DNA of 64,000 bases, taken from Betaproteobacteria bacterium RIFCSPLOWO2_12_FULL_68_20. Its GTDB lineage: Bacteria > Pseudomonadota > Gammaproteobacteria > Burkholderiales > SG8-39. Positions 11,111 through 64,000 of the stretch are shown piece after piece (the stretch's first letter is position 1; each line of letters begins with the position of its first letter). Below the pieces are notes generated by a model that saw only the letters and a list, made by a program, of their open reading frames with translations, was not told the origin of the DNA and did no database searches. Both the position numbers and the translations under genes were made by a program. The stretch is taken from NCBI GenBank assembly GCA_001770655.1, contig MERQ01000020.1, positions 4,272 to 68,271 on the forward strand, read 5' to 3'.

Positions 11111-12432
11111 GTCTTCCTTCCTATCGGGTGGTACTCGATTCCCTGGGCGCGCATCGCAGCCGGATCGTACAGGTTGCGCCCGTCGAAGACCGCCGGGGTC
11201 TTCAGGCGCGCCTTCAACGCGGCGAAGTCCGGGCTGCGGAACTCGCGCCACTCGGTGACGATCGCGAGCGCATCCGCCCCTTCCAGCGCGGCGAGCGCCG
11301 AAGCGGCGATCTCGACTTTCGGCTCGCCGGCGTAGAGGCGCCTCGCCCCGTCGCCCGCAGCCGGATCGTAGGCGCGCACCGCCGCGCCGGCGCCGAGGAG
11401 GTCGGCGATGAGGGTCCTCGCCGGCGCCTCGCGCAGGTCGTCCGTCTCCGGCTTGAACGCCAGGCCCCAGATCGCGAAGCGCCGCCCGGAGAGATCGGCG
11501 CCGAAGCGCGCGCGGATCTTTGCGCCGAGCACGTGCTTCTGCGCCTCGTTCACCTGCTCCACCGCGGCGAGCACCCTGAGCGGGCGGCCGGCCTCCGAGG
11601 CGATGCGCTGCAGCGCCTTCACGTCCTTGGGGAAGCACGAGCCGCCGAATCCCGCGCCCGCGTAGAGGAAGCGGCTGCCGATCCTCGGGTCCGCGCCGAT
11701 GCCGCGGCGCACCTGCTCGATGTCGGCGCCCAGCGTCTCGGCGAGGTTCGCCAGCTCGTTCATGAACGAGATGCGCGTGGCGAGCATCGAGTTCGCGGCG
11801 TACTTGGTGAGCTCGGCCGAGCGCGCGCCCATCACCATCATGCGCTCGCGGTTGCGCTGGAACGGCGCGTAGAGGCTTCGCAGCAGCGCGATCGCGCGCT
11901 CGTCGTCGGAGCCGACGATGATGCGCTCGGGGCGCATGAAGTCCTCGACCGCCGCGCCCTCCTTGAGGAATTCGGGGTTCGAGACCACCGCGAGCTCGAG
12001 CTCGACTCCGCGGCGGCGCATCTCTTCGCCTATCGCCTGGCGAATCCGGTCGGCCGTGCCGACCGGCACCGTCGACTTGGTCGCGACCACCTTGTACGAG
12101 CGCATGTGGCGCCCGATCGCGCGCGCCGCCTCGAGCACCTGCGTGACGTCCGCCGCGCCGTCCTCGCCGGGCGGCGTGCCGACCGCGATCAGCTGCAGCT
12201 CGCCGTGCGCCACGCTCGCCGCCACGTCGGTGGTGAACGCGAGCCTTCCGGCCGCGCGGTTGCGCGCGACGATCGGCTCCAGGCCCGGCTCGAAGATCGG
12301 GACGCGGCCCGCGGCGAGCGCCTCGATCTTCGTCGCGTCGAGATCGACGCAGAGCACGCGGTTTCCCGCGTCGGCGAGGCAGGCGCCGGTGACAAGCCCC
12401 ACGTAACCTGTTCCGACCACCGTGAGGTTCAT
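11107..12432 (-). CDS. ugd: UDP-glucose 6-dehydrogenase
   Basis: [16 protein letters not shown], catalytic [10 protein letters not shown] and [10 protein letters not shown]. Confidence 0.93.
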
Positions 12433-13607
12433 GGCGCGAGGTCGAACTCCTCGGTGCGCCGCGGCGGGTAGGTCTCCCAGCCGCCGCAGGCCGGGCAGCG
12501 CCAGTGGAACTGGCGCGCCTTGAAGCCGCAGCTCTCGCAGCGGTAGCGGGCGAGGCGCCGCGTGTGGCCGTGCACGAGATTGCGCACCAGCTCCAGGTCG
12601 CGCCTGCGCTCGGGCGATGCCGCCCCGATGATCTGCGCCTCGAGCAGCCGGTCCAGGCCGAGCAGCGTCGGGTTGCGCCGCAGCTCGTCGCGCACCAGCT
12701 TGTAGGCGACCTCGACGCCCTTCGCCTCGAGCGTCTGCTGGAACACCGTGTCGAGCAGATCGAGCGACGGGTAGCGCTCGAGGTAGCCGGCCAGCAGCGT
12801 CAGGCCCTCCTCGGGGCGCCCCACGTCGCGGTAGGCCTCGAGCAGGCGCTGCGCCGCGAGCGCGAGGTACGAGGCGTCCTGCGACTCGATCCTCTTCCAG
12901 TGCTCGATCGCGCGCTCCAGCTTGCCCGCCGCGCGCTCGAGGTCGCCGAGCTGCAGGCTGGCGCGCACGCACTTGCGGTTCGCCTCCAGCGCCTCCTCCA
13001 GGTGCCGGCGCGCCGCGTCCGGTCGCGAATGCGTCGCCTCGGTCGAGGCGAGCTCGCACAGGTACTGCGCGACGCCGCGGCCGCGGGATTCGCCGGATTC
13101 GGCGGCGAGGCGCTTCGCCATGTCGGTGGCGCGGTCCCACTCCTTTTCCTGCTCGTAGATCTCGAGCAGGCGCCGCCGCGCCAGCGCGGCGCTGGGGCCC
13201 TCGGCGAGCCGCGCGAATACGTCCTCCGCGCGGTCGAGGATGCCGGCCTTGAGGTAGTCCTCGCCCAGCGCGGCGAGCGCGGCGAGCTTCTGCTCGGCGC
13301 CGAGGTCGGCGCGCTCGAACAGGTTCTGGTGCATGCGGATCGCGCGGTCGTACTCGCCGCGGCGCCGGAACAGGCTCCCCAGCGCGAAGTGCAGCTCGAT
13401 GGTCTCGGGGTCGATCCTCACCACCTCGATGAAGGCCTCGATCGCCTTGTCCGGCTGCTCGTTGAGCAGGAAATTGAGCCCCTTGAAGTACGAGCGCGGC
13501 AGCGCGCGCGATTCACGCACCAGCTGCCGGATGTCGATGCGCGCCGCCGCCCATCCCAGGCCGAAGAACAGCGGAAATCCCAGCAGCCACCAGTACTCGA
13601 ATTCCAT
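12429..13607 (-). CDS. lapB: Lipopolysaccharide assembly protein B
   Basis: [20 protein letters not shown] helices, and a C-terminal rubredoxin motif (CESCG...CPACGGW). Confidence 0.93.
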
Positions 13608-51606: not shown

Positions 51607-52815
51607 ATGCTCGACGCCTACCTGTACGACGGGTTGCGCACCCCGATCGGCCGCCACGCCGGCAAGCTCGCGCCGCTGCGCCCCGACGACCTCGCGGCCG
51701 AGGTGATTCGACAGGTGGTCGCGAGAAACAGCCTCGATCCGGCCGAGATCAGCGACGTGGTGCTCGGCTGCGTCAACCAGGCGGGCGAGGACTGCCGCAA
51801 CGTGGCGCGCTTCGCGGCGCTTCTCGCCGGCCTTCCGCCGAGCACGCCCGGCGCGACAGTGAACCGGCTGTGCGCGAGCGGGCTGCAGGCGGTGGTGGAC
51901 GCGGCGCGCGCGATCACCTGCGGCGAGGGCGAGCTCTACCTCGCCGGCGGCGTCGAGAGCATGTCGCGCGCGCCGTACGTGCTGGCAAAGTCCGAGGCGC
52001 CCTACAGCCGCGAGGCGAAGATGTACGACTCGACCATCGGCGCGCGCTTCCAGAACCCGCGCTTCGTCAAGCAGTACGGCGATCACTCGATGCCGCAGAC
52101 CGGCGACAACGTGGCGAGGGATTTCGGCATCACGCGCGGCGAGGCCGACGAGTTCGCGCTCGCCTCGCAGCAGAAGTACGCGCGCGCCGAGGCCGAGGGC
52201 TTCTACAAGGGCGAGATCCACCCGGTCGCGCTCCCGGCGCGCAAGAAGGACGCGCCGCCCGCGACGCTGGACGCCGACGAGCACCCGCGGCGCGACTCGA
52301 CGCTGGAGGCGCTCGCGAAGCTCAAGCCGCTGTTCGAGGGCGGCGTGGTCACCGCGGGCAATGCGTCGGGCGTGAATGACGGCGCCGCCGCCCTGGTGAT
52401 CGGTTCGAGGGCTTGGGGAGAAAAAAAGGGCAGGAAGCCCATGGCGCGCATCCTCGCTGCGGCGAGCGCCGCGGTCGAGCCGCGCATCATGGGCGTCGGC
52501 CCGGCATACGCGATTCCGCTTGCCCTGCAGCGCGCCGGCCTTTCGCTCAAGGACATGGACGTCATCGAGATCAACGAGGCCTTCGCCAGCCAAGTGCTCG
52601 GCTGCCTCAAGTTGATGAACGTCGACTTCAAGGACCCGCGGGTCAACCCGAACGGCGGCGCGATCGCGATCGGGCATCCCCTCGGCTGCTCGGGAGCGCG
52701 CCTCGCCCTGACGGTGGCGCGCGAGCTGCAGCAGTCCGGCGGCCGGTACGCGGCGGTGTCGTTGTGCATCGGAGTCGGGCAGGGACTGGCCGTGATCCTG
52801 GAGCGCATGAGCTGA
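51607..52815 (+). CDS. Thiolase (3-oxoadipyl-CoA thiolase-like acetyl-CoA C-acyltransferase)
   Basis: NRLCASG, NEAFA, GGAIAIGHPLG and SLCIGVGQG. Confidence 0.9.
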   Translation: MLDAYLYDGLRTPIGRHAGKLAPLRPDDLAAEVIRQVVARNSLDPAEISDVVLGCVNQAGEDCRNVARFAALLAGLPPSTPGATVNRLCASGLQAVVDAARAITCGEGELYLAGGVESMSRAPYVLAKSEAPYSREAKMYDSTIGARFQNPRFVKQYGDHSMPQTGDNVARDFGITRGEADEFALASQQKYARAEAEGFYKGEIHPVALPARKKDAPPATLDADEHPRRDSTLEALAKLKPLFEGGVVTAGNASGVNDGAAALVIGSRAWGEKKGRKPMARILAAASAAVEPRIMGVGPAYAIPLALQRAGLSLKDMDVIEINEAFASQVLGCLKLMNVDFKDPRVNPNGGAIAIGHPLGCSGARLALTVARELQQSGGRYAAVSLCIGVGQGLAVILERMS

Positions 52816-52874
52816 TTTTTCTTGATTTAACTCAGTTCCTTGGCCGTCCCGACGCGGCATAAGTCCGGAGGACG

Positions 52875-53024
52875 ATGAACGCTCCACTCAAGGCCCGGCC
52901 GCCCAAGGCCCAGTTCGTCTGGGACGACCCGCTCCTGCTGAGCGGCCAGCTCATCGAAGACGAGCGCATGGTGCGCGATGCGGCGCACGCCTACTACTGC
53001 CAGGGCATACAGGGATTCAGCTAA
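52875..53024 (+). pseudogene. gcdH: 5' fragment of a glutaryl-CoA dehydrogenase-type acyl-CoA dehydrogenase
   Basis: GGAGG SD, then MNAPLKARPPKAQFVWDDPLLLSGQLIEDERMVRDAAHAY(Y)CQ, the typical GcdH N-terminus. Similarity stops near 53004 and a stop codon follows. Confidence 0.75.
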
Positions 53025-53030
53025 AGCGCC

Positions 53031-53180
53031 ATGGACAACTGGGCCTTCGGTATCACCATGACAATCGTCGGCGTGGGCGGTACTTTTCTCACGCTCTGGA
53101 TCCTGAGCCTGGTCATGAGCCTTCTGAAGAAGGTCTTTCCGCTTTCACCGGAAGAGAGCAAGACCGACAAGAAGCCTTAA
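53031..53180 (+). CDS. Na+-translocating decarboxylase small (gamma/delta, OadG-like) subunit
   Basis: 49 aa, MDNWAFGITMTIVGVGGTFLTLWILSLVMSLLKKVFP..., a single TM helix directly upstream of the beta subunit. Not in the supplied ORF track. Confidence 0.7.
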   Translation: MDNWAFGITMTIVGVGGTFLTLWILSLVMSLLKKVFPLSPEESKTDKKP

Positions 53181-53196
53181 CGAGGGAGAAAAGAAC

Positions 53197-54348
53197 ATGC
53201 TGGAGAGCATCCTAAGGGGCCTCTCCGGGCTGGGCAGCGGCGGGATCGAGCTGTTCTCATCGCAGGGGCTGCCGAACCTGGTCATGCTGTTCGTCGCCGC
53301 CGGGCTGCTCTACCTCGGCGTGAAGAAGCAGGTGGAGCCGCTCCTTCTCGTTCCCATCGGCTTCGGCGGCCTGCTCGCGAACGTCCCGCTCGGCGACCTC
53401 ATGCAAGAGGGCGGCCTGCTGCGCATCCTCTACGACATGGGCATCTCGAACGAGCTGTTCCCGCTGCTCATCTTCATCGGCATCGGGGCCATGATCGATT
53501 TCGGCGTGCTGCTGGAGAACCCGAAGATCCTGCTGTTCGGCGCGGCGGGGCAGATCGGCATCTTCCTTACGCTGCTGCTCGCTTTGGGGTTGGGATTCAC
53601 GCAGCTCGAGGCGGTGAGCATCGCCATCATCGGGGCAATGGACGGCCCGACCGCGATCTACGTGACTTCGCAGTTCGCGCCGCACCTTCTCGGCGCGGTC
53701 TCGGTCGCCGCGTATTCGTACATGGCGCTCGTTCCGATCATCCAGCCGCCGATCATGAGGGCGCTCACCACGCAGAAGGAGCGCGTGGTGCGCATGGGCA
53801 CGCTGAAAAAGAGCGTCTCTCCTACCGCGAAGCTGCTTTTCCCCATCGTCGTGACGCTGGTGACCGGGCTCATCGCGCCGAAGGGCCTGCCCCTCATGGG
53901 AACTATCATGCTTGGCAATTTCATGCGCGAGTGCGGCGTGGTCGCCCGGCTGACCAAGGCCTCCGAGAACGAGATCGCGAACATAGTGACGCTGTTCCTC
54001 GGGCTTGCTATCGGGGGCACGATGGAGGGCAAGGCGTTTCTCACGCCGCAGACGCTCTTGATCTTCGGGCTCGGATTCATCGCCATCTGCCTCGACACCG
54101 TGGCAGGCGTGCTCTTCGGCAAGCTGGTGTGCTGGGCGAGCGGCGGCAAGGTCAACCCGCTCGTCGGCGCGGCCGGCATCTCGGCCTACCCGATGGCCGC
54201 GCGGGTGGTGCAGGTCCAGGGGCAGCGCTACGACAAGAGGAATTACCTCCTCATGCACGCCGCCGGAGCGAACACCGGCGGGCAGATCGGCTCGGTGATG
54301 GCCGCCGCCGTGATGCTGTCGGTACTCAATGGCATGGGCCTGATCTAG
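53197..54348 (+). CDS. Na+-translocating decarboxylase beta subunit (OadB/GcdB family)
   Basis: EPLLLVPIGFG, PLLIFIGIGAMIDFG, IIGAMDGPTAIY, AAYSYMALVPIIQPP and AGANTGGQIGS. Confidence 0.92.
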   Translation: MLESILRGLSGLGSGGIELFSSQGLPNLVMLFVAAGLLYLGVKKQVEPLLLVPIGFGGLLANVPLGDLMQEGGLLRILYDMGISNELFPLLIFIGIGAMIDFGVLLENPKILLFGAAGQIGIFLTLLLALGLGFTQLEAVSIAIIGAMDGPTAIYVTSQFAPHLLGAVSVAAYSYMALVPIIQPPIMRALTTQKERVVRMGTLKKSVSPTAKLLFPIVVTLVTGLIAPKGLPLMGTIMLGNFMRECGVVARLTKASENEIANIVTLFLGLAIGGTMEGKAFLTPQTLLIFGLGFIAICLDTVAGVLFGKLVCWASGGKVNPLVGAAGISAYPMAARVVQVQGQRYDKRNYLLMHAAGANTGGQIGSVMAAAVMLSVLNGMGLI

Positions 54349-54377
54349 CCGCCAACGGTTCGCGAGCGGTGGATCGC

Positions 54378-54412
54378 TTGACATATTTCCATATTTCCGC
54401 GATTATCGAAAC
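54378..54412 (+). promoter_or_regulatory. Sigma70 promoter with an imperfect ArsR-type operator
   Basis: TTGACA (54378-54383), a 17-nt spacer, GATTAT (54401-54406); ATATTTCC tandem repeat; imperfect inverted repeat TTTC...GAAA. Confidence 0.5.
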
Positions 54413-54760
54413 ATGGTTACGGTTTCCAAGGTCGCCGCCTACGCCGACATGTTCTCCGCGATGGGGACCGAGCCGCGGCTGCGCATCCTGCGCCTTCTGC
54501 TGGCGGCGCATCCCGAGGGGCTGGTGGCCGGCGCCATCCAGTCGGAGCTCGACATCCCGAATTCGACCCTTTCCCACCATCTGGAGAAGTTGCGCAGCGA
54601 GGATCTGGTCGAGGCGCGGCGCGAGGGAACCTTCCTCTGGTACACCGCGAACACAGGAACGCTTCAGGAACTGCTTGGATTTCTCTTCGAGGAATGCTGC
54701 TGCCGCACGAGCGCCGTTCCCCGTGAAAACATCGTCAGGATTCAGCCAATGCGGAGATAG
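54413..54760 (+). CDS. arsR: ArsR/SmtB family transcriptional repressor
   Basis: FSAMGTEPRLRILRLL, STLSHHLEKL, REGTFLWY and C-terminal EECCCR. Confidence 0.9.
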   Translation: MVTVSKVAAYADMFSAMGTEPRLRILRLLLAAHPEGLVAGAIQSELDIPNSTLSHHLEKLRSEDLVEARREGTFLWYTANTGTLQELLGFLFEECCCRTSAVPRENIVRIQPMRR

Positions 54761-54765
54761 ATCAA

Positions 54766-55512
54766 ATGGATGCCAGCGACATTCGCAACGCAGTAAAGCG
54801 CAAGTATGCCGAGGCCGCGCGCAGTGCGACGTCGGGTGAGAGGTCCTGCTGCGGCACTTCGTGTGGCAGCGACAATGCAATCACTTCGCATCTGTATGCG
54901 CCCGAGCAAATGGCCGATGTCCCCGAAACCGCGCTGCGTGCCTCGCTCGGCTGCGGCAACCCCAGCGCCCTCGCGCAACTGCGCGCCGGGGAGATCGTGC
55001 TCGACCTGGGCTCCGGCGGCGGCATCGACGTGCTGCTCTCCGCAAAGCGGGTCGGCCCGACCGGGAAAGCCTACGGCCTGGACATGACCGAAGAAATGCT
55101 GCGCCTGGCACGGGACAACCAGCGCCAGGCGGGCGTGACCAACGCCGAGTTCCTGCAGGGCGAGATGGAAAACATCCCGTTGCCCGACAAGTCCGTAGAC
55201 GTGATCATCTCGAACTGCGTGATCAACCTGTCCGCGGACAAGGACCGCGTCCTGTCCGAGGCATTCCGCGTGCTTCGGCCCGGAGGCCGCTTCGCGGTGT
55301 CCGACGTCGTGTCGCGGGGCGAGATACCCGACGAGATCCGGCGCAACCTCGAACTCTGGACCGGATGCATTGCCGGCGCACTGGACGAGAGCGACTATCT
55401 GGGCAAGCTGCAGGCCGCCGGCTTCGTCGACGCGAGCATCGAGCCGACGCGCGTCTACGGCGACGGGCGATTTTTCGGCGCCTTTGTGCGCGCGAGGAAG
55501 CCGCTCACATGA
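54766..55512 (+). CDS. arsM: Arsenite S-adenosylmethionine methyltransferase
   Basis: [29 protein letters not shown] and WTGCIAGAL. Confidence 0.92.
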
Positions 55513-55538
55513 CCAGCGACGCTGCGGAGTTTCGCCGC

Positions 55539-55700
55539 TCAGCCCCTGATGAGCCGCGGCAGCATCATCAGGTGCCGCGGGCAGATGGATTCCGGGTTCT
55601 GGTAGACGGCACCGGCAAACGCCTTGAGATAGCCGCGTAACGCGGCGAGATTCACGATCTCGTCGACGAAGCCGTAGCGCGCGCAGGGGGATGGGGTTGA
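55539..55700 (-). pseudogene. gcdA: 3' fragment of a glutaconyl-CoA decarboxylase alpha (carboxyltransferase) subunit
   Basis: CARYGFVDEIVNLAALRGYLKAFAGAVYQNPESICPRHLMMLPRLIRG* matches the GcdA C-terminus as recalled (..GLVDEIV..RGY..AF..AYQNPESICP.HQM.LPR). There is no upstream GcdA sequence. Confidence 0.7.
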
Positions 55701-55766
55701 TCTAACCGCTTCTTGGGCCGGAAGCGGGTAGCGAGCGCCGCTGCCGGTACCCGCGCCCACAGTCGC

Positions 55767-56966
55767 TTACAGGTATTTCTTGAGCTCCAGCCTGCCGATT
55801 TGGTTGCGGTGGACCTCATCCGGACCGTCAGCGATACGCAGCATCCGCGCATTGGCGTAGGCCCTGGCCAGGCCGAAGTCGTTGATGACGCCCGCGCCGC
55901 CGTGCGCCTGGATCGCCCAATCGATCACGCGGCAGGCCATGTTGGGCGCCGCCACCTTGATCATCGCGATCTCGGCCTTCGCCACCTTGTTGCCCACGGT
56001 GTCCATCATGTAAGCCGCCTTGAGCACCAGCAGGCGGGCCTGCTCGATCAGGATGCGCGATTCGGCGATGCGCTCGAGCGTCACCGTCTGCTCGGATATC
56101 GGTTTGCCGAAAGCCACACGCTTCATCGTGCGCCGGCACATGCTCTCCAGCGACCGCTCGGCCAGCCCGATGAGGCGCATGCAATGGTGGACGCGCCCCG
56201 GCCCCAAGCGCCCTTGCGCAATCTCGAAGCCGCGACCCTCGCCCAACAGAATGTTGCTGACCGGCACGCGCACGTTCTCGAACTTGACCTCCGAGACGCG
56301 GTCCAGGGCATCGAACCCGAACACCGGCAGCGGGCGGATCACCGTCACCCCCTTCGACTCAAGCGGCACCAAGATCATCGACTGTTGCTTGTGCCGGTCC
56401 GGATTGTCCTGATCGGTCTTGCCCATGAAGATGAAAAGCTTGCAGCGAGGATCGGGGGCGCCCGAGGAGAACCACTTGCGGCCGTTGATCACGTATTCAT
56501 TGCCGTCGCGCTTGATCGACGCTTGGATATTGGTGGCATCGCTGGAAGCCACTCCCGGCTCGGTCATCGCGAAGCAGGAGCGGATCTTGCCGTCCAGCAG
56601 CGGTTCCAGCCATTGCTTTTTCTGCTCATCGGTGCCGTAGCGCACCAGCACTTCCATGTTGCCGGTATCCGGCGCCGAGCAGTTGAACACTTCCGGCGCC
56701 CACGTCACGCCGCCCATGATCTCGCAAAGCGGCGCGTATTCGAGGTTGGTGAGCGTGCCGCCATGCGACTTGGGCAGGAACAGGTTCCACAGGCCCTCGG
56801 CCCTGGCCTTCTGCTTGAGATCCTCGATCTTCATTGAATAACTGAACGGCCCGCCCTGGTCGATGTCCTGCTGGATCTGTGCCTCGCTCGGATAGATGTG
56901 CTCCTCCATGAAGCCCTTGAGGCGCGCCTGTAGGTTTTTCACTTTCTGTGAATAGTTGAATTCCAT
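55767..56966 (-). CDS. Acyl-CoA dehydrogenase (ACAD10/11-like)
   Basis: [42 protein letters not shown] and [10 protein letters not shown]. Confidence 0.9.
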
Positions 56967-57075
56967 CTCACTTCCTTCTCGGTTCGTTGATCATCCGGCG
57001 TCGCCGTCCGGTGAAGTCGGCAACCAGAGCGGTAAACTGGTGCGACCACGTGCGGCATGTTTGCGGGGGGCCGAT

Positions 57076-57852
57076 ATGAGTGTAAGGCAACTGTTCGATC
57101 TGACCGGCAGGGTGGCGCTTATCACTGGCGGGTCGCGCGGGCTGGGCCTACAGATCGGCGAAGCACTGGGCGAGATGGGTGCGAAGATCGCCATCAGCGC
57201 GCGCAAGCAGCCAGAATTGGACGCAGCGGCAGCGCATCTCGAGAGGCAGGGCGTCGAGGTCATGACGGCCGCTTGCGACCTGCAGGACCCGAAGGCTGCC
57301 AAACCGTTGGTGGAGGAGGTGCTCGCCAAATTTGAGCGCCTCGACGTCCTGGTCAACAACGCCGGGACCACGTGGGGCGCACCCGCGGAAGAGCATCCGC
57401 TGGAAGCCTGGAACAAGGTGATCAACCTGAATCTCACTGCGGTGTTTGCGCTGAGCCAGACTGCGGCCAATCTCGCGATGATTCCGGCCCGCTACGGGCG
57501 TATCGTCAACATCGCATCGATTGCGGGGCTTTCCGGCACGCATATCGACGTTATGTGCACCATCGCGTACAACACTAGCAAAGGCGGCGTGGTGAACTTC
57601 ACCCGATCCCTGGCCGCGGAGTGGGCACGCTACAACATCACCGTGAACGCCATTGCACCCGGTTTTTTCCCGAGCAAGATGGCCAAGGTGATGATCGAAA
57701 CTCACAAGGACGCCATCATGCAGTTCACGCCGCTCAGGCGTCTCGGCGGCGCGGAGGACCTGAAGGGCGTAGCCGTGCTGCTGGCTTCCGACGCCTCCGG
57801 CTTCATCACAGGCCAGACGATCGCCGTCGATGGCGGCGTGAGCGCCATCTAG
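57076..57852 (+). CDS. SDR family oxidoreductase
   Basis: TGGSRGLG, NNAG, catalytic YNTSK and APGFFPSKM. Confidence 0.9.
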   Translation: MSVRQLFDLTGRVALITGGSRGLGLQIGEALGEMGAKIAISARKQPELDAAAAHLERQGVEVMTAACDLQDPKAAKPLVEEVLAKFERLDVLVNNAGTTWGAPAEEHPLEAWNKVINLNLTAVFALSQTAANLAMIPARYGRIVNIASIAGLSGTHIDVMCTIAYNTSKGGVVNFTRSLAAEWARYNITVNAIAPGFFPSKMAKVMIETHKDAIMQFTPLRRLGGAEDLKGVAVLLASDASGFITGQTIAVDGGVSAI

Positions 57853-57951
57853 GCGCGAGCTGCTCCAGACTGGAATTCCGGGGATCGATGATCATGGGCA
57901 AGAGTAATCCGGATGACCAGATCGCCACCGCCAGCAGTCGATGATCGTCGC

Positions 57952-58985
57952 ATGAACGGGCACGACAATCCGGACCTGGGCCGGCTGACGGCGTACTTCG
58001 AGCGCCATGTACAAGGCACTAGTGGCGCGCTCGTGGCCGAACGGTTCACCGGCGGACAGTCCAATCCAACGTATCGCATCGCGGACAGTGCGGGGCACCG
58101 TTTCGTGTTGCGAAAGAAGCCTTCGGGAGTACTCCTGCCATCCGCTCACGCCGTTGACCGTGAATACCGTGTGCTGAAGGCACTGCAGGAAACCGACGTA
58201 CCCGTTCCCCGCGTGCTGGCTTATTGCGACGATCCCCGCGTGATTGGAACTCCGTTCTATGTCATGGAGTTCGTAGAGGGCCGTATCTTCTGGGACCCGA
58301 CGCTGCCTGAGCTGTCGCCGGCAGATCGCACAGCCCTTTATGAGGATGTAAACCGCATGGTGGCGACCCTGCATCGTGTGGACGTCGGAGCGGTCGGACT
58401 GGGGGACTATGGACGTCCTGGTCGGTTTATGGAGCGACAGATCGCGCGATGGACAAAGCAGTATCTGGCTGCCGCCACGGAGCCCATCGAAGCTATGGAC
58501 CGGCTCATCCACTGGTTGTCTGCGCACATGCCGCCCGGGGACGAGTCGGCGGTTTTTCACGGCGACCTACGACTGGACAACATGATCGTCCATCCTGTTG
58601 AGCCGCGCGTGTTGGCCGTACTGGACTGGGAATTGTCCACGATCGGGCATCCCTTGGCGGACCTTGCGTACCACATGCTGCCCTGGCATTTGACGGCGCA
58701 ACAGTTTCGCGGCATGGCCGACAAGCCGCTGGCGGCACTCGGCATTCCGTCCGAGAACCAATACTTGCGCGCCTATTGTTCGCGCGTCGGTCGACGCGAC
58801 GTCGAGCCACGGAGTGGTCGTTCTATGTCGCCTATGCGATGTTTCGGCTCGCAGCGATCCTGCAAGGCATCCTCAAGCGTTCGCTGGATGGCACCGCATT
58901 CGACAAGCACGCGCGTGAAACCGGGATGAAAGCGGGCTCGATCGCGGCCGTGGCCTGGAAGTACGCGAGCTCAACGGTACCGTGA
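57952..58985 (+). pseudogene. Phosphotransferase (APH / ACAD10-11 kinase-like), frameshifted near 58812
   Basis: GGQSNPTY, SAHAVDREY, HGDLRLDN and LDWELSTIGHPLAD. The conserved tail EWSFYVAYAMFRLAAILQGI is in another frame; one G is missing in CGG/GAG at 58810-58814. Confidence 0.85.
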
Positions 58986-59007
58986 ACGACCATTGTCAAT
59001 CGAACAT

Positions 59008-59694
59008 CTAATGTTCTGGCGCGAAGACATCGTCGGGAAGTTCCGCGATCGCCGCGAGAACTGATTTGAAATGCCGCCGCACCGCCAACGCGGCTTTTGG
59101 TGCGGAGCCTTGCGACACCGCGTCTGCGATGAGCTGGAAATCATGCAGCCGTGCATCCCTTGATTGGTAGTCACGGAATTGGGTACGGATTAGATTGATC
59201 TGAACGCCGGGCACCAGTCTTGCCAATTCCCGATTACCGCCGATATGCACCAGCGCACGATAGAAGGCGTTCCTTGCCCGCGCGAATTCGAAGGAGTCGC
59301 CGGCGGCCTTGAAAGCCAGGAGCCGGTCAAAACTCTCTCGCAGCACCTTGCGGTTATCCGCCACCATGATTTTCCCGGCGGCCAATCTGGCGGCGAGCGC
59401 AATGAGCGCCTCGCCGACGGCGAGGATGTCCATGGCTTCGGCGCGGGTAAGCAAGCGGATCTGGGCGCCGCGATTGAAGCTGAGGGTGACCACGCCTTCG
59501 GCTGCAAGGCGGTTCAGCCCCTCACGGATCGATCCGCGGGCGACTTTGAACTCTCGCACGAGGTCGGCCTCGACCAGGCGCTGACCGGCTACGTATTTGC
59601 CGCGGTATAGTCCCTCGAGAATGGCGCGATAGACCCTGTAAGGCGCGCTTGCTGCCTCGAGATTGGCGAGTGCTGCATTGCTGGCGGGAATCAT
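59008..59694 (-). CDS. GntR family (FCD) transcriptional regulator
   Basis: YVAGQRLVEADLVREFKVARGSIREGLNRLAAEGVV HTH plus an FCD domain. The start is uncertain. Confidence 0.88.
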   Translation of the reverse strand: MIPASNAALANLEAASAPYRVYRAILEGLYRGKYVAGQRLVEADLVREFKVARGSIREGLNRLAAEGVVTLSFNRGAQIRLLTRAEAMDILAVGEALIALAARLAAGKIMVADNRKVLRESFDRLLAFKAAGDSFEFARARNAFYRALVHIGGNRELARLVPGVQINLIRTQFRDYQSRDARLHDFQLIADAVSQGSAPKAALAVRRHFKSVLAAIAELPDDVFAPEH

Positions 59695-59911
59695 CGGGCG
59701 CTCCCGGGCTGCCTGCGCCAGCCGGGGCGGTCGCGACCACCCACCAGCCCCGCCTGCACGCGCTGCTTCAGCAGACGGCGGGATCGAAAGCGTTCCCCGT
59801 AGGCATCGAACATGATTTCCTGCGCTTGCAGGCAGAGACTCGACGTCGTGGCGTCCATCAGCAAGTCGTCTTCGAACCCGAGCGGGCGCTCGCCCGTCGG
59901 GGAAAGCCCGA

Positions 59912-59941
59912 TTGACATTGTCAGACAAAATTGTAAGATAA
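59912..59941 (+). promoter_or_regulatory. Sigma70 promoter overlapped by tandem GntR/FadR-type operator palindromes
   Basis: TTGACA (59912-59917), 16-nt spacer, TAAGAT (59934-59939); palindrome TTGTC-A-GACAA (59918-59928) and a degenerate copy TTGTAAGATAA (59931-59941). Confidence 0.6.
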
Positions 59942-60193
59942 ACACGGACCGCAGCACAAGCGAGCGGCGCGTTACGTGCATTGGTGCGTGCGCGCCGATA
60001 TAGCTCCAAACCCAGGAGGCGATTTTTGTGATCGAGATCAAGTCGCCGATCGTCGCCACGATATTCGATGTGTGATCGCAATCGTCACGTCGCGGCAAGA
60101 CCTGGAGGGCAAACCGATGGCGCTACTGCGCCTTGCGTCCAGGCGATCAATCCTTAGGCCGATCGCATAACCATCGAAAAGGAGATAGTTCCA

Positions 60194-61075
60194 ATGTCGT
60201 TTTCCATGCAGACCCCGATCAAGGCCGAATTCGACGACCTCATCTACGAGGAGAAAGGCGATGTCGCGACGATCACGCTGAATCGGCCGAAGGTCGTCAA
60301 CGCCCTCTCGGTCAAGGTCTCCGACGAGCTGGTGGCGGCGGTGGAGAAGGTGCGCCAGTCGGAATCGATCAAGATCCTGGTGTTCCGCGGGGCAGGAGGC
60401 AACTTTTGCGCCGGCGACGATCTGAAAGAGTTTCTCAACTTGCCGGAGTGGGGCGACTCGAACCGCGCCTTCCGCCGCGCGCGCTTCTACCAGGACATGG
60501 CGTACTCCATCGAGGAGCTCGACAAGATCACAATCGCCGCGGTCGACGGATTCGCCGTCGGCGGCGGCCTGGAGCTCACGATGGCGTGCGACTTCGTGAT
60601 CGCGACCGAGCGCGCCAAGTGGGGCATGCCGGAGGCCGACTGGGGCATCACGCCCGGCTGGGGCGGCACCACGCGCATGGCGCGTCTCATTGGCCGCCGC
60701 AGGACCAAGGAGATCAACATCCTCGCTGCGCTGCATCCCGCCAAGACTGCGGTGGAATGGCATCTGTGGAACCGCGTCGTGCCCGACGACGCCCTGGACG
60801 CCGAGGTGGGGACGCTCATCGACCTGCTGCGCAGGAAAAATCAGCAGACCATGCGCCAACTCAAGTACATCATCAACAAGGGCGTGGAATGCGACCAGTA
60901 CACGGCGCAGGCGATGGAAGCGTTGTCGGCCGGCTGGACGTTCGAGCTTCTGCGCAGAGGCGTGGTGCGCGATCACGATGCGACCGCGGGACTCGAGGCG
61001 TTCCGCGACAAGAACGCGCTGCAAAAGAACCGGCGCAACGCGGCGCGCGACTTCTGGACCAAGCCGGCGATCTGA
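60194..61075 (+). CDS. Enoyl-CoA hydratase/isomerase family protein
   Basis: ITLNRP, FCAGDDL, AVGGGLEL and MPE..WGITPGWGG. Confidence 0.88.
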   Translation: MSFSMQTPIKAEFDDLIYEEKGDVATITLNRPKVVNALSVKVSDELVAAVEKVRQSESIKILVFRGAGGNFCAGDDLKEFLNLPEWGDSNRAFRRARFYQDMAYSIEELDKITIAAVDGFAVGGGLELTMACDFVIATERAKWGMPEADWGITPGWGGTTRMARLIGRRRTKEINILAALHPAKTAVEWHLWNRVVPDDALDAEVGTLIDLLRRKNQQTMRQLKYIINKGVECDQYTAQAMEALSAGWTFELLRRGVVRDHDATAGLEAFRDKNALQKNRRNAARDFWTKPAI

Positions 61076-61085
61076 TCGACGTATC

Positions 61086-62582
61086 GTGCGCCGCGAGCAC
61101 CTGAGCAGCCTGCGCAGCACCCTCGCGTGGCTCGGCGACGAGGTCAAATACCTTCGCGCCGAGGTCGATCCGGTGCTGGAGATGACTGCCATCAACAAGG
61201 CCTTCGACGACGGGCCGGTGTTCGTTGCCGAAAACATAACCGGCTATTCCCACGCCCGATACGTCGCCAGCCTGTTCGGCCGCAGGGACCGGGTTTGCCG
61301 CCTCCTCGGAGTGCAGTCCCAGAAAGAGGCGGCGCAGCGGATCCTGGAGGCTTTGCGACACCCGGTCGCGCCGGTGATCGTGTCGGATGCTCCCTGTCAG
61401 GAAATCGTGACCCCCGGGAAGGACGTCGATCCATTCGCGCTTTTCCCGATGGTCAAGCACACGCCGGTGGACGGCGGCCGCTTTTTCGGCTCCGGGGTGC
61501 ACCTGATCGGCGGGAAATACGCGGATGGAAAGAGTCAACTTGCGTTTTACCGCATGAGCTTTCGCGGCCGGGACTTCGCGTCGATCAACATGTTTCCCGG
61601 CGGGCATGGCGATCAAATCGCCCAGCGGCACTTCGGAGAAAAAATCCCCTGCACGGTCAACATCTGCCCGCCGCCGATGGTGGAGTTCGTGGCAGGCGGC
61701 TCGCTGAACCCGATCATTTTCCCGACCGCACCGGATGAGTTGGGACTCGCCGGCGCGTTGCAGGGGGCGCCGGTCGAGCTCGTCAGGGCGCGCACCGTGG
61801 ACGCCTACGCGATCGCCCGCTCGGAGTGGGTGATCGAGGGCTACATCGTGACCAACGAGCGCGTGTGGGAGACCGAGGAGGCCGAAGAGCTCGGGGTACA
61901 AGGCAAGGCCATGTTCCACCCCGAATACGCCGGCTACGTAGGCCGCGCGTATCGGTGCAGAAAATTCGAAGTCACCGCGGTGACCCATCGGGCGGACAAG
62001 CCCTATTACTACGTCCCCTATTTCGGGAATATCTGGGCGTACCTCCCCTTCGTCAGCGCCAATTACCTGGAGCTGTGCGAGCGCATCGCCCCCGGCTTCG
62101 CCCTGGACGCTACTTCCATGACCGGGCTCATCACCTGGGGCGGCGTCATCATCCAGGTGAAGAAGCGCAGGGCCACCGACGAGGGCCTGCAGCGCAACAT
62201 CCTCACTGCGGCGATGGGGATAAGCCGCGGCCTGCGGCTTGTGGTCGTCGTCGACGAGGATGTCGATATCTACCAGCCGGAGAGCGTTCTCTGGGCGATC
62301 GCCACACGGGTCGATCCGAAGTCCGACGTCGTGATCGGCGGAGGCGGCCGCGGCCAGGCGTTCGTGCCGTCCGCGGCTGTTCCCGAGGGCAAAGGGACTT
62401 TCGGCACCTGCCTCGGCGTCGACGCAACCGTCCCCTGGTCGATGAAGGACCAGTTCGCGCGCACGCGCTATCCGGTGGACGCGGTCGATTTCTCGAAATG
62501 GTTCACTGCGGAGGAGATCCGCTCGATGCGCGAGCACCAGAGCGAGTATCTCCGCCATCTCGGCATGACGGGTTTCAGCTGA
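61086..62582 (+). CDS. UbiD-family prFMN-dependent decarboxylase, phthaloyl-CoA decarboxylase-like
   Basis: UbiD motifs (YRM, ELGLAGALQGAPV, EGY, VVVDEDVDI, WAIATRVDP, GVDATVP) plus FHPEYAGYVG, WGGVIIQVKKR, EGLQRN and GRGQ.F.P. Confidence 0.9.
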   Translation: MRREHLSSLRSTLAWLGDEVKYLRAEVDPVLEMTAINKAFDDGPVFVAENITGYSHARYVASLFGRRDRVCRLLGVQSQKEAAQRILEALRHPVAPVIVSDAPCQEIVTPGKDVDPFALFPMVKHTPVDGGRFFGSGVHLIGGKYADGKSQLAFYRMSFRGRDFASINMFPGGHGDQIAQRHFGEKIPCTVNICPPPMVEFVAGGSLNPIIFPTAPDELGLAGALQGAPVELVRARTVDAYAIARSEWVIEGYIVTNERVWETEEAEELGVQGKAMFHPEYAGYVGRAYRCRKFEVTAVTHRADKPYYYVPYFGNIWAYLPFVSANYLELCERIAPGFALDATSMTGLITWGGVIIQVKKRRATDEGLQRNILTAAMGISRGLRLVVVVDEDVDIYQPESVLWAIATRVDPKSDVVIGGGGRGQAFVPSAAVPEGKGTFGTCLGVDATVPWSMKDQFARTRYPVDAVDFSKWFTAEEIRSMREHQSEYLRHLGMTGFS

Positions 62583-64000
62583 TGGGCGCCGCCCCCACGG
62601 TTTCGCAGACGCGGCTCGGGCCGGCCGAGAGCGTGGACGAGATGCTGCGGTCACGCTGCGCGGAAAACCCAGACAAGGTCATGTTCCGGAGCATCGAGCA
62701 GGGAAGTGCGATCACCTACCGGCAAATGCTGGACGTGACCGCTCAACTCGGCCGGCTGTTCGACGACCTGGGTCTCAGGGCCAACGACCGGGTGGCTGTC
62801 CTTGGAGAGAACTCGCTGGAGTTCCTGATCATCGCGCTGGCGGCGATGCGCTACGGGGCCACGTTCTGCCCGCTCAATCCCGAATACCTGGACGGGGAAA
62901 TCGAGAAGCTGCTCGCTCGCGCGCGCCCGAAAGCGACTTTTTGCCATCGCAGCCAGGCCGGCCGCGAGATCGGTGGCGCGCACGGGCAACTGTTCTATTA
63001 CGAGGACTGGCGCTCCGCCGCGCAAGCAGAAGCGCGTCCGGCCGCGGACCCCGACCTGTTTGCGGCGATCGCGAAGTACCCGGTCGACCGCCCGCCGGTG
63101 CCGGTATCGACCGGCGACAGCGCCGGGCTGATCTTTCACACCTCGGGAACCGAGGGCGAGCCGAAAGGCATCGTCCACTCGTCCCGCGGCTTCCTGACCA
63201 ACGCGCAGAACGCGGTGGCGATTTTCGAAATAGGCCCGCAAGACGTGCTGCTCGAGTACCGTCCCTACAGTTGGGCGGCGCCGTTCTGCTTCGGGTGCCT
63301 GACGCTGCTGTTCTCGGGGGCGACGGTCGTCTTCGCCAAGAAATTTTCGCGCAGCCGATTCTTCGATTGGATCAGGGATTACCGGGTCACCGTCGTCGGC
63401 GGCATCCCGGCGGTCTTCAACGCGCTGTTGAGCGCCGGGGAGCGGGTGAAGAGGTCCGACATTCCGTGGCTGAGATTCATCACCAGCAGCACTGCGCCGC
63501 TGCCGGCCTCGCAGCAAAAAAGATTCGTCGAGACCTACGACATCCCGATCGTCACACTGTACGGAGCGACCGAAGGCGGCTGGATGGCGTTTACGCCCCC
63601 CTCCAGCCCGAGGATCGGGAGCGTCGGTAAGCCGGCGGCATGTGCCGAGATGCGGATCGTGGACGAAGCGGGCAAGGCACTGCCGGCGGGAACGGTCGGG
63701 GAAATCGAGGTCGGAGGGGTGCAGCGCGCGATCGGATACCTGCTTCCCGACGGCAGCGTGCAGCCGTACTCGTCGGGGCGAATCCGCATCGGCGACCTCG
63801 GCGTCATCGACGCGGACGGATACCTCTACATCACCGGGCGCAAGAAGGACCTGATCATCCGGGGCGGCGAGAACGTCGCGCCTGCCGAGATTGACAACGT
63901 GCTGCTATCGCATCCCGACATCGCCGACGGTGCCGCTCTCGGCGTGCCCGATCCGATCTATGGCGAAGAAGTCGTGTGCTTCGTCGTTCCCAAGGAAGGG
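62582..64000 (+). CDS. AMP-dependent acyl-CoA ligase (partial, runs off the right edge)
   Basis: The ATG overlaps the UbiD stop and the frame is open to the window end. Motifs IFHTSGTEGEPKG, LYGATEG and GDLG..D.DGYLYITGRKKDLIIRGGEN. Absent from the ORF track, presumably because it has no stop in the window. Confidence 0.88.
   Translation, partial: MGAAPTVSQTRLGPAESVDEMLRSRCAENPDKVMFRSIEQGSAITYRQMLDVTAQLGRLFDDLGLRANDRVAVLGENSLEFLIIALAAMRYGATFCPLNPEYLDGEIEKLLARARPKATFCHRSQAGREIGGAHGQLFYYEDWRSAAQAEARPAADPDLFAAIAKYPVDRPPVPVSTGDSAGLIFHTSGTEGEPKGIVHSSRGFLTNAQNAVAIFEIGPQDVLLEYRPYSWAAPFCFGCLTLLFSGATVVFAKKFSRSRFFDWIRDYRVTVVGGIPAVFNALLSAGERVKRSDIPWLRFITSSTAPLPASQQKRFVETYDIPIVTLYGATEGGWMAFTPPSSPRIGSVGKPAACAEMRIVDEAGKALPAGTVGEIEVGGVQRAIGYLLPDGSVQPYSSGRIRIGDLGVIDADGYLYITGRKKDLIIRGGENVAPAEIDNVLLSHPDIADGAALGVPDPIYGEEVVCFVVPKEG

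Follow-up and report, generated by a model that had tools for sequence, protein, structure and literature searches.

In-frame deletion of gcdH in a probably native glutaryl-CoA cluster of uncultured Burkholderiales, beside an apparently intact sodium-pump route split by extra DNA

Known systems and the locus

Two ways of handling glutaryl-coenzyme A (glutaryl-CoA) are described in bacteria: facultative anaerobes use a decarboxylating dehydrogenase, GcdH, and obligate anaerobes use a non-decarboxylating enzyme together with the Na+-pumping glutaconyl-CoA decarboxylase, Gcd (PMC5852087). We have analyzed a stretch of 64,000 nucleotides from the genome of Betaproteobacteria bacterium RIFCSPLOWO2_12_FULL_68_20 (contig MERQ01000020.1, positions 4272-68271; G000:C20:4272-68271 in our numbering), in which a remnant of gcdH stands directly ahead of genes for two subunits of Gcd. 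We refer to this whole stretch as the window. It lies on a scaffold of 99.9 kb in a metagenome-assembled genome (MAG) of 3.48 Mb, with 109 scaffolds, 68% G+C (GC) and 96.45% completeness. Window-equivalent coordinates larger than 64,000 refer to the same contig, C20, past the end of the window.

The closest described decarboxylases are the GcdABCD complexes of Acidaminococcus fermentans and Clostridium symbiosum (structures 1PIX and 3GF3), members of the Na+-transporting carboxylic acid decarboxylase family. The four subunit types are common to both those systems and the one described here. The host there is a fermenting Firmicute, whereas here it is a member of the Burkholderiales that probably respires oxygen; the genes here lie in two convergent units 11.7 kb apart; and they are paired with a glutaryl-CoA dehydrogenase, not with a hydroxyglutarate pathway. 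The biotin carrier here is a bare domain of 71 amino acids (aa). GcdC of A. fermentans has a long Ala/Pro linker.

For the dehydrogenase encoded next to gcdA, here called gdh, the closest described enzyme is Acd/GDH_Des of Desulfococcus multivorans (3MPI/3MPJ), which works with Gcd, as has also been proposed for Syntrophus aciditrophicus. The two are alike in a Val-Glu-Gly motif and an arginine. That pairing has been described for obligate anaerobes (PMC5852087), whereas the host here has haem-copper oxidases. The decarboxylating GcdH of Azoarcus, Thauera and Pseudomonas, and human GCDH, are full-length three-domain acyl-CoA dehydrogenases (ACADs) of about 395-400 aa; the gene here has 49 codons, of which the first 43 and the last 6 are orthologous to the GcdH of relatives, and there is no second copy. 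Finally, OadB and OadG of Salmonella and Klebsiella (6IVA/6IWW) share their key OadB residues with the beta subunit here, which also has a small OadG-type partner encoded upstream, but the beta subunit is shorter (383 aa vs. 433 aa) and its partner is GcdA and not an OadA-type alpha subunit. The parts are all of known kinds, in a less expected host. What is new is the loss of gcdH caught in progress, and the splitting of the cluster.

The explanation that we favor, at a probability of roughly 80% for the whole of it, is that the locus is a glutaryl-CoA cluster native to an uncultured lineage of Burkholderiales, in which two routes to crotonyl-CoA were encoded side by side, and in which gcdH has suffered a deletion while the second route stays intact and is split by extra DNA. 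The one-enzyme route would be that of decarboxylating GcdH. The two-enzyme route would use gdh, as a Desulfococcus-type non-decarboxylating dehydrogenase, and then the biotin-dependent Na+-pumping decarboxylase made of GcdA, GcdB, GcdC and GcdD. The features on which this explanation rests are as follows.

51607-52815, plus strand: 3-oxoadipyl-CoA-type thiolase, first gene of the thiolase-gcdH-gcdD-gcdB unit (Pfam Thiolase_N and Thiolase_C; NF006001, 674 bits vs. a cut-off of 622)
52875-53024, plus strand: gcdH remnant of 49 codons (alignment to the 5′ and 3′ ends of relatives' gcdH)
53031-53180, plus strand: gcdD, OadG-like small anchor subunit (PF04277, 30.1 bits vs. a cut-off of 27; NF040909, 55.7 vs. 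25)
53197-54348, plus strand: gcdB, Na+-translocating carboxybiotin decarboxylase beta subunit (PF03977, E-value 1e-145; TIGR01109, 425.5 bits vs. a cut-off of 190.6)
54413-54760, plus strand: arsR-family metalloregulator, ArsR/SmtB (Pfam HTH_20 and HTH_5; NF033788)
54766-55512, plus strand: arsM, arsenite methyltransferase (NF008823, 341 bits vs. a cut-off of 263)
55539-55686, minus strand: orphan gcdA 3′ end, 48 codons and a stop, the tail of a 73-aa open reading frame (ORF) at 55539-55760 (minus strand) (74-83% identity to the C-termini of relatives' GcdA)
55687-64000: in-window part of an inserted catabolic block of 10.4 kb, which continues to window-equivalent 66096
66097-67830 (window-equivalent; C20:70368-72101), minus strand: full-length gcdA, 577 aa (1PIX, E-value 4e-221)
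67833-68993 (window-equivalent; C20:72104-73264), minus strand: gdh, acyl-CoA dehydrogenase (3MPI, E-value 1.8e-109)
69022-69237 (window-equivalent; C20:73293-73508), minus strand: gcdC, 71-aa biotin carrier (PF00364, 67 bits)

The relatives to which we compare are loci of family relatives, together with 80 loci retrieved with GcdB. Their database records are labelled as Burkholderiales or Betaproteobacteria MAGs, and the sources are groundwater, soil and lakes.

The gcdH gene has lost its interior

An initial annotation of the window, made from its letters alone, had gcdH stopping after about 44 codons. The gene is indeed a short stub, GcdH-like over residues 1-43, but it is not truncated. 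Codons 1-43 have 73-88% identity to the GcdH N-termini of family relatives, and the final 6 codons (GIQGFS, then the stop) are the native GcdH C-terminus; relatives' GcdH proteins end in GIQGFS, GIQAFF or similar. The remnant is too short to give a match in a Pfam search. In the DNA, its first 129 nt match the start of gcdH, and from 53004 on the sequence matches the last codons of gcdH followed by the start of gcdD. The two parts meet at junction 53003/53004, where TGCCAG is followed by GGCATACAGGGATTCAGCTAA, and the microhomology at the join is a few bases only. The three closest relatives (L034, L035 and L036, with GcdB at 92-93% aa identity) have a gcdH that is about 1.06 kb longer, exactly at this point. 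Because the remnant ends with the native GcdH C-terminus, and because the closest relatives are longer precisely at the join, we conclude that about 1.05 kb has been deleted, in frame, from within gcdH. Some 351 codons are gone, with all catalytic parts; the gene is neither truncated nor interrupted.

The MAG has no second gcdH when searched with a full-length GcdH query. The best match is gdh, at 34% identity, and control genomes yield E-values of 1e-192 to 1e-233 with the same query. We also considered an island inserted in gcdH, with the rest of the gene lying beyond the low-GC block. A tblastn search for that remainder reports only other ACADs, at 34% identity or less, and the remnant already contains the gcdH 3′ end.

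The remnant retains its ribosome-binding site, start codon and stop, and the stop lies 6 nt before gcdD; in relatives the stop of gcdH adjoins or overlaps the start of gcdD. An in-frame remnant of this kind may carry translation up to the start of gcdD, and gcdD-gcdB would still be expressed from the thiolase/gcdH transcript.

The sodium-pump route looks complete

The OadG-like and OadB/GcdB-like genes noticed right after the stub are there, both scoring over their family cut-offs. GcdB is encoded by the only beta subunit gene in the genome. It matches OadB of 6IVA with an E-value of 5e-96, and the equivalents of OadB D203, Y229, N373, G377, S382 and R389 are all conserved. These residues are reported to be functionally important in Klebsiella OadB, from mutagenesis.

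Further along the window, the order arsR-arsM and then a GcdA-like tail on the opposite strand also holds, and the peptide at 55539-55700 does align to GcdA. The in-window copy of gcdA is only a tail, of 48 codons. The full-length gene lies past the window end, and its product matches 1PIX (E-value 4e-221) and 3GF3 (2e-217) over the full length, compared with E-values of 1e-18 to 1e-37 for other carboxyltransferases. Public records already name this alpha subunit 'glutaconyl-CoA decarboxylase subunit alpha [Burkholderiales bacterium]'. A second, distant carboxyltransferase is encoded on C86, and it is 25% identical to GcdA. A biotin carrier had been reported missing. That is correct inside the 64-kb window, but C20 carries the 71-aa gcdC shortly past the window end, upstream of gdh-gcdA (an arrangement shared with relatives), with PF00364 over its cut-off at C20:73299-73499 and the biotinyl-lysine motif EALKME. 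Of the intact genes for which a search of the genome had been proposed, gcdA and gcdC were found on C20, and gcdH was not found.

For gdh, the match to 3MPI is followed by a next-best ACAD in the PDB at 2e-91, and the decarboxylating GCDHs are at about 1e-59. The gene reads QVVEGTS, aligned to V366-E367 of 3MPI, that is, Val-Glu-Gly where GcdH has Tyr-Glu-Gly, the exchanged residue standing just ahead of the catalytic Glu. The full-length GcdH of relatives has the tyrosine (TYEGT). This exchange of Tyr for Val is reportedly diagnostic of the non-decarboxylating enzyme. The equivalent of the carboxylate-binding Arg87 is retained (SWRLPF vs. SALRVQL).

All five genes of the second route (gdh, gcdA, gcdB, gcdC and gcdD) are intact by sequence, with a low ratio of nonsynonymous to synonymous substitution rates (dN/dS). 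Its values are 0.09-0.17 across all five; gcdD has 0.09-0.12 against L034 and L036, gcdB has 0.11, and gcdA, gdh and gcdC have 0.13-0.16. As predicted from its genes, the system is complete and undecayed. Glutaryl-CoA, for example from the encoded anaerobic benzoyl-CoA pathway, would now be oxidized by gdh to glutaconyl-CoA, GcdA would pass the carboxyl group to biotin on GcdC, and GcdB, anchored with GcdD, would decarboxylate the carboxybiotin and export Na+.

The same order is native in relatives

Three layouts recur in the loci of relatives. In layout A, the order is thl>gcdH>gcdD>gcdB<gcdA<gdh<gcdC, where thl is the thiolase gene; in layout B, it is gcdC>gdh>gcdA>gcdD>gcdB<gcdH<thl; and in layout C, it is thl>gcdD>gcdB, with gcdH absent between. 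The convergent layout with both routes is seen in L036, L038, L048, L079 and others. In L035 and L036, gcdB and gcdA converge with a few bases between their 3′ ends. The thiolase of the window has 76-91% aa identity with the thiolases of relatives, where its position is identical.

The synonymous divergence (dS) to L034 and L036 is 0.60-0.79 for the thiolase, 0.39-0.96 for gcdD and gcdB, and 0.48-0.64 for gcdA, gdh and gcdC. It is alike on both sides of the gcdH junction. GcdB has its best matches in Burkholderiales (78-93% identity) and not in Desulfobacterota (69-77%), from which its closest matches had been expected to come. In a quick, midpoint-rooted tree, it groups with 56 other Pseudomonadota sequences (approximate likelihood-ratio support 93), apart from the Thermodesulfobacteriota. 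An ancient transfer between Desulfobacterota and Burkholderiales is possible, and a quick tree with midpoint rooting gives no direction for it. In relatives too, the gcd genes are 1-3 GC points under the thiolase gene, so the gcd genes themselves account for some of the drop in GC at the junction.

The gcdD-gcdB pair itself is inverted between lineages. It stands either after gcdA, in one operon gcdC-gdh-gcdA-gcdD-gcdB (L045, L046, L076 and L088), or after gcdH (L036, L038, L048 and L079). Depending on the lineage, the pump subunits thus share a transcript with one or the other of two rival dehydrogenases.

Extra DNA separates the two halves of the pump

Between gcdB and gcdA this genome has 11.7 kb of extra DNA, made of arsR-arsM, the orphan 144-bp gcdA 3′ end and the catabolic block of 10.4 kb, and this is why only half of the pump system falls inside the window. 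The edge of a window can make an intact split system resemble decayed fragments. The suggestion of a partly relocated functional system comes close to the truth: the system does look functional, and it is split by an 11.7-kb insertion.

The orphan gene end is one copy of a direct repeat of 144 bp. Copy 1 is at 55543-55686, and copy 2, at window-equivalent 66101-66244 (G000:C20:70372-70515), forms the 3′ end of full-length gcdA. The two are identical at 138 of the 144 nt (96%), lie 10,558 bp apart and flank the 10.4-kb block. The initial annotation saw no terminal repeats, which is true within the 64-kb window and no longer true on the contig. The block deviates in composition from the genome (its GC falls in the 1st-4th percentile and its tetranucleotide distance in the 92nd-97th), and its ACAD has 68% identity to the closest relatives and 75% to a different Burkholderiales family. 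The block is of foreign composition and insertion-like, with flanking repeats at a gene 3′ end. None of the 80 related loci has arsR or arsM, and none has the block or any of this cargo between gcdB and gcdA. A plasmid origin of the extra DNA found no favor in a megablast search against PLSDB, which gave only matches of 72-76% to generic ACAD genes.

Another Burkholderiales MAG (L066) has its own direct repeat of a gcdA 3′ end, with 137 nt at 93% identity and copies 1,114 bp apart (11547-11683 and 12661-12797). It encloses about 1 kb without any Pfam match.

Together, the 144-bp pair of the window and the independent pair of L066 suggest that insertions recur at the 3′ end of gcdA, each leaving a surplus copy of the gene end.

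What weighs against this explanation

Several observations count against a native cluster with a deleted gcdH and an intact second route. The best NCBIfam model for gdh is NF045552 (GlutCoADH_Des), and its score of 445.5 bits is under the curated equivalog cut-off of 470. The activity of gdh, the export of Na+ by GcdABCD and the expression of these genes are predictions. The main ORFs of the extra DNA include no integrase, insertion sequence (IS), transposase or other recombinase, the Pfam families being only catabolic, transport and regulator families; the absence of IS and integrase had been noticed from the start. The 144 bp may have been duplicated in any of three ways: an insertion that restored the gcdA end, an incoming allele that with its neighbors replaced the resident gcdA-gdh-gcdC and left the old tail, or template switching in replication. 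Structure is judged here from assemblies, and a full-length gcdH allele may co-exist in the population. It is also possible that a gcdH lies on unbinned DNA, since the MAG is 96.45% complete. One other contig with the gcdH junction (L114, JGI contig Ga0209520_10040013) leaves the window sequence at 55426, inside arsM, for its last 155 bp (L114:2807-2961), which hints at structural heterogeneity. And the contigs that carry the junctions are independent assemblies that may share a site or population of origin, and not necessarily from independent organisms.

Alternative explanations

Of the alternatives, the one that survives best is that a genuine deletion is present in just one allele, and that cells with full-length gcdH co-exist, with the assembler or the binner having kept the deleted path; the one-enzyme route would then not be lost overall. 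A bubble of 1 kb in an assembly graph yields a short contig, which tends to be dropped in binning, and L114 is at least one other assembled structural variant at this place. But the deleted form has been assembled 39 times, the MAG has no gcdH-like sequence of more than 34% identity, and five related genomes are entirely without gcdH. We regard this alternative as unlikely.

Considerably less probable is that mis-joins produced both the deletion in gcdH and the orphan tail of gcdA, through a chimera or a collapsed metagenome path. The MAG does have 109 scaffolds with runs of N, the composition shifts at the junction, and L114 diverges at 55426. Nevertheless, the exact 49-aa remnant peptide is found on 39 contigs (JGI, Logan and ENA), and the 73-aa ORF across the junction of gcdA tail and block on 27 contigs, with a variant on 18 more. 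(Rho factors of 643-652 aa fall into one cluster with the 49-aa peptide, a clustering artefact that we disregarded.) The longest contigs with the junction peptides are 75,687 and 66,907 bp long, and they are not this scaffold. L114 contains the 32-mer across the gcdH junction and is 100% identical to the window over 52621-55426. Its ArsM has 267 aa, a different C-terminus, and is a singleton, compared with 24 contigs for the 248-aa form of the window; L114 would thus represent a rare structural variant, or else be chimeric at its end. Moreover, a microhomology of a few bases at the joins is far under any assembler k-mer, and there is no break in relatedness to L034-L036 at the gcdH junction. 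As both junction peptides are on dozens of other public contigs, mis-assembly is probably not the explanation, and the initial suggestion of a chimeric assembly is not supported. That sequences from two organisms were joined near 53000, in particular, is rejected on synteny, continuous dS and the recurrence of the junction in other assemblies.

We give equally little credence to the idea that gcdD-gcdB serve some other biotin-dependent decarboxylase, for methylmalonyl-CoA or oxaloacetate, and stand beside gcdH incidentally. The substrate of a beta subunit is not assignable from sequence alone (TIGR01109 is a subfamily model), and the carboxyltransferase on C86 offers another conceivable partner. 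However, the genome has a single beta subunit gene, four relatives (L045, L046, L076 and L088) have gcdB beside or in an operon with gcdA-gdh-gcdC, and the adjacent alpha subunit is far closer to the GcdA structures than to any other carboxyltransferase.

The least credible is the initial proposal, in which an anaerobe-type Gcd block arrived by horizontal transfer exactly at the gcdH locus and has been decaying there, leaving only gamma, beta and the alpha tail: GC does drop from about 0.70 to 0.62-0.65 at the junction, the nearest GcdB sequences outside Burkholderiales are those of Desulfobacterota, and an orphan gcdA tail exists, but gcdD-gcdB follow gcdH natively in many relatives, the native C-terminus of the stub means that nothing was inserted into gcdH, dS and the GC of relatives' gcd genes tell against a boundary there, and full gcdA, gdh and gcdC lie intact 10.5-13 kb away. 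It is gcdH itself that has decayed.

Loss of gcdH across the clade

No gcdH, at an E-value of 1e-60 or better, comes from another five genomes (G018 and G034-G037) that show layout C or a remnant. Life without gcdH is thus viable in the clade. Two loci have kept pieces: L056 has only the last 54 codons of gcdH, directly after the thiolase (L056:7668-7829), and L043 has a scrap of 18 codons beside gcdD-gcdB (L043:2065-2118). About ten loci have the thiolase and then gcdD directly (L050, L053, L055, L061, L063, L066, L068, L070, L073 and L089). From the five genomes without gcdH and the remnants in L056 and L043, the loss looks recurrent in this clade.

Regarding the physiology of the host, the MAG has genes for subunit I of haem-copper oxidases, and a hydrolase of the Oah/BamA type for 6-oxocyclohex-1-ene-1-carbonyl-CoA at G000:C37:15190-16224 (plus strand; 609 bits vs. 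a cut-off of 464). Based on these two markers, the organism probably respires oxygen and runs the anaerobic benzoyl-CoA pathway, which would be the source of glutaryl-CoA. A search of open-access papers on Gcd in Betaproteobacteria or Burkholderiales found nothing relevant.

A broader proposition, on which we place about even odds, is that we are looking at a clade of oxygen-respiring, benzoyl-CoA-degrading Burkholderiales in which the 'strict-anaerobe' route is native and classical GcdH has been repeatedly discarded. Selection for storing decarboxylation energy in a Na+ gradient would then extend beyond strict anaerobiosis, and the present genome would amount to a naturally occurring gcdH knock-out dependent on the pump. 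In this genome and at least five relatives the 'facultative' enzyme is gone and the 'anaerobe' one remains, in a lineage that is widespread in groundwater, soil and lakes. If the pump works, each glutaryl-CoA would yield a little extra energy, and it would be unsafe to call an organism an 'obligate anaerobe' from gcd genes in a metagenome.

Genes of the extra DNA

A promoter-like site stands ahead of arsR, at 54378-54406. The 10.4-kb block has the following genes, assigned by Pfam.

55767-56966, minus strand: ACAD
57076-57852, plus strand: SDR
57913-58929, plus strand: APH kinase
about 59008-60081, minus strand: GntR/FCD regulator
60194-61075, plus strand: enoyl-CoA hydratase (crotonase)
about 61086-62582, plus strand: UbiD-like protein, with all three UbiD Pfam domains
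about 62579-64186, plus strand: CoA ligase
about 64200-65166, plus strand: TctC receptor
65228-66100, plus strand: 3-hydroxyacyl-CoA dehydrogenase, whose stop overlaps the gcdA stop

In L066, the DNA between gcdB and gcdA includes a BATS-domain ORF (L066:9312-9827, minus strand), the C-terminal part of a biotin/thiamin synthase, adjoining a biotin-dependent enzyme. In the window, 55767-58929 holds a divergent ACAD/SDR pair with an APH-type kinase as the third gene. The pairing of an ACAD with a phosphotransferase recalls ACAD10/11 and the Lva-type route for 4-hydroxyacyl-CoA. Within the same block, the crotonase, the UbiD-like decarboxylase and the CoA ligase form a tight row at 60194-64186.

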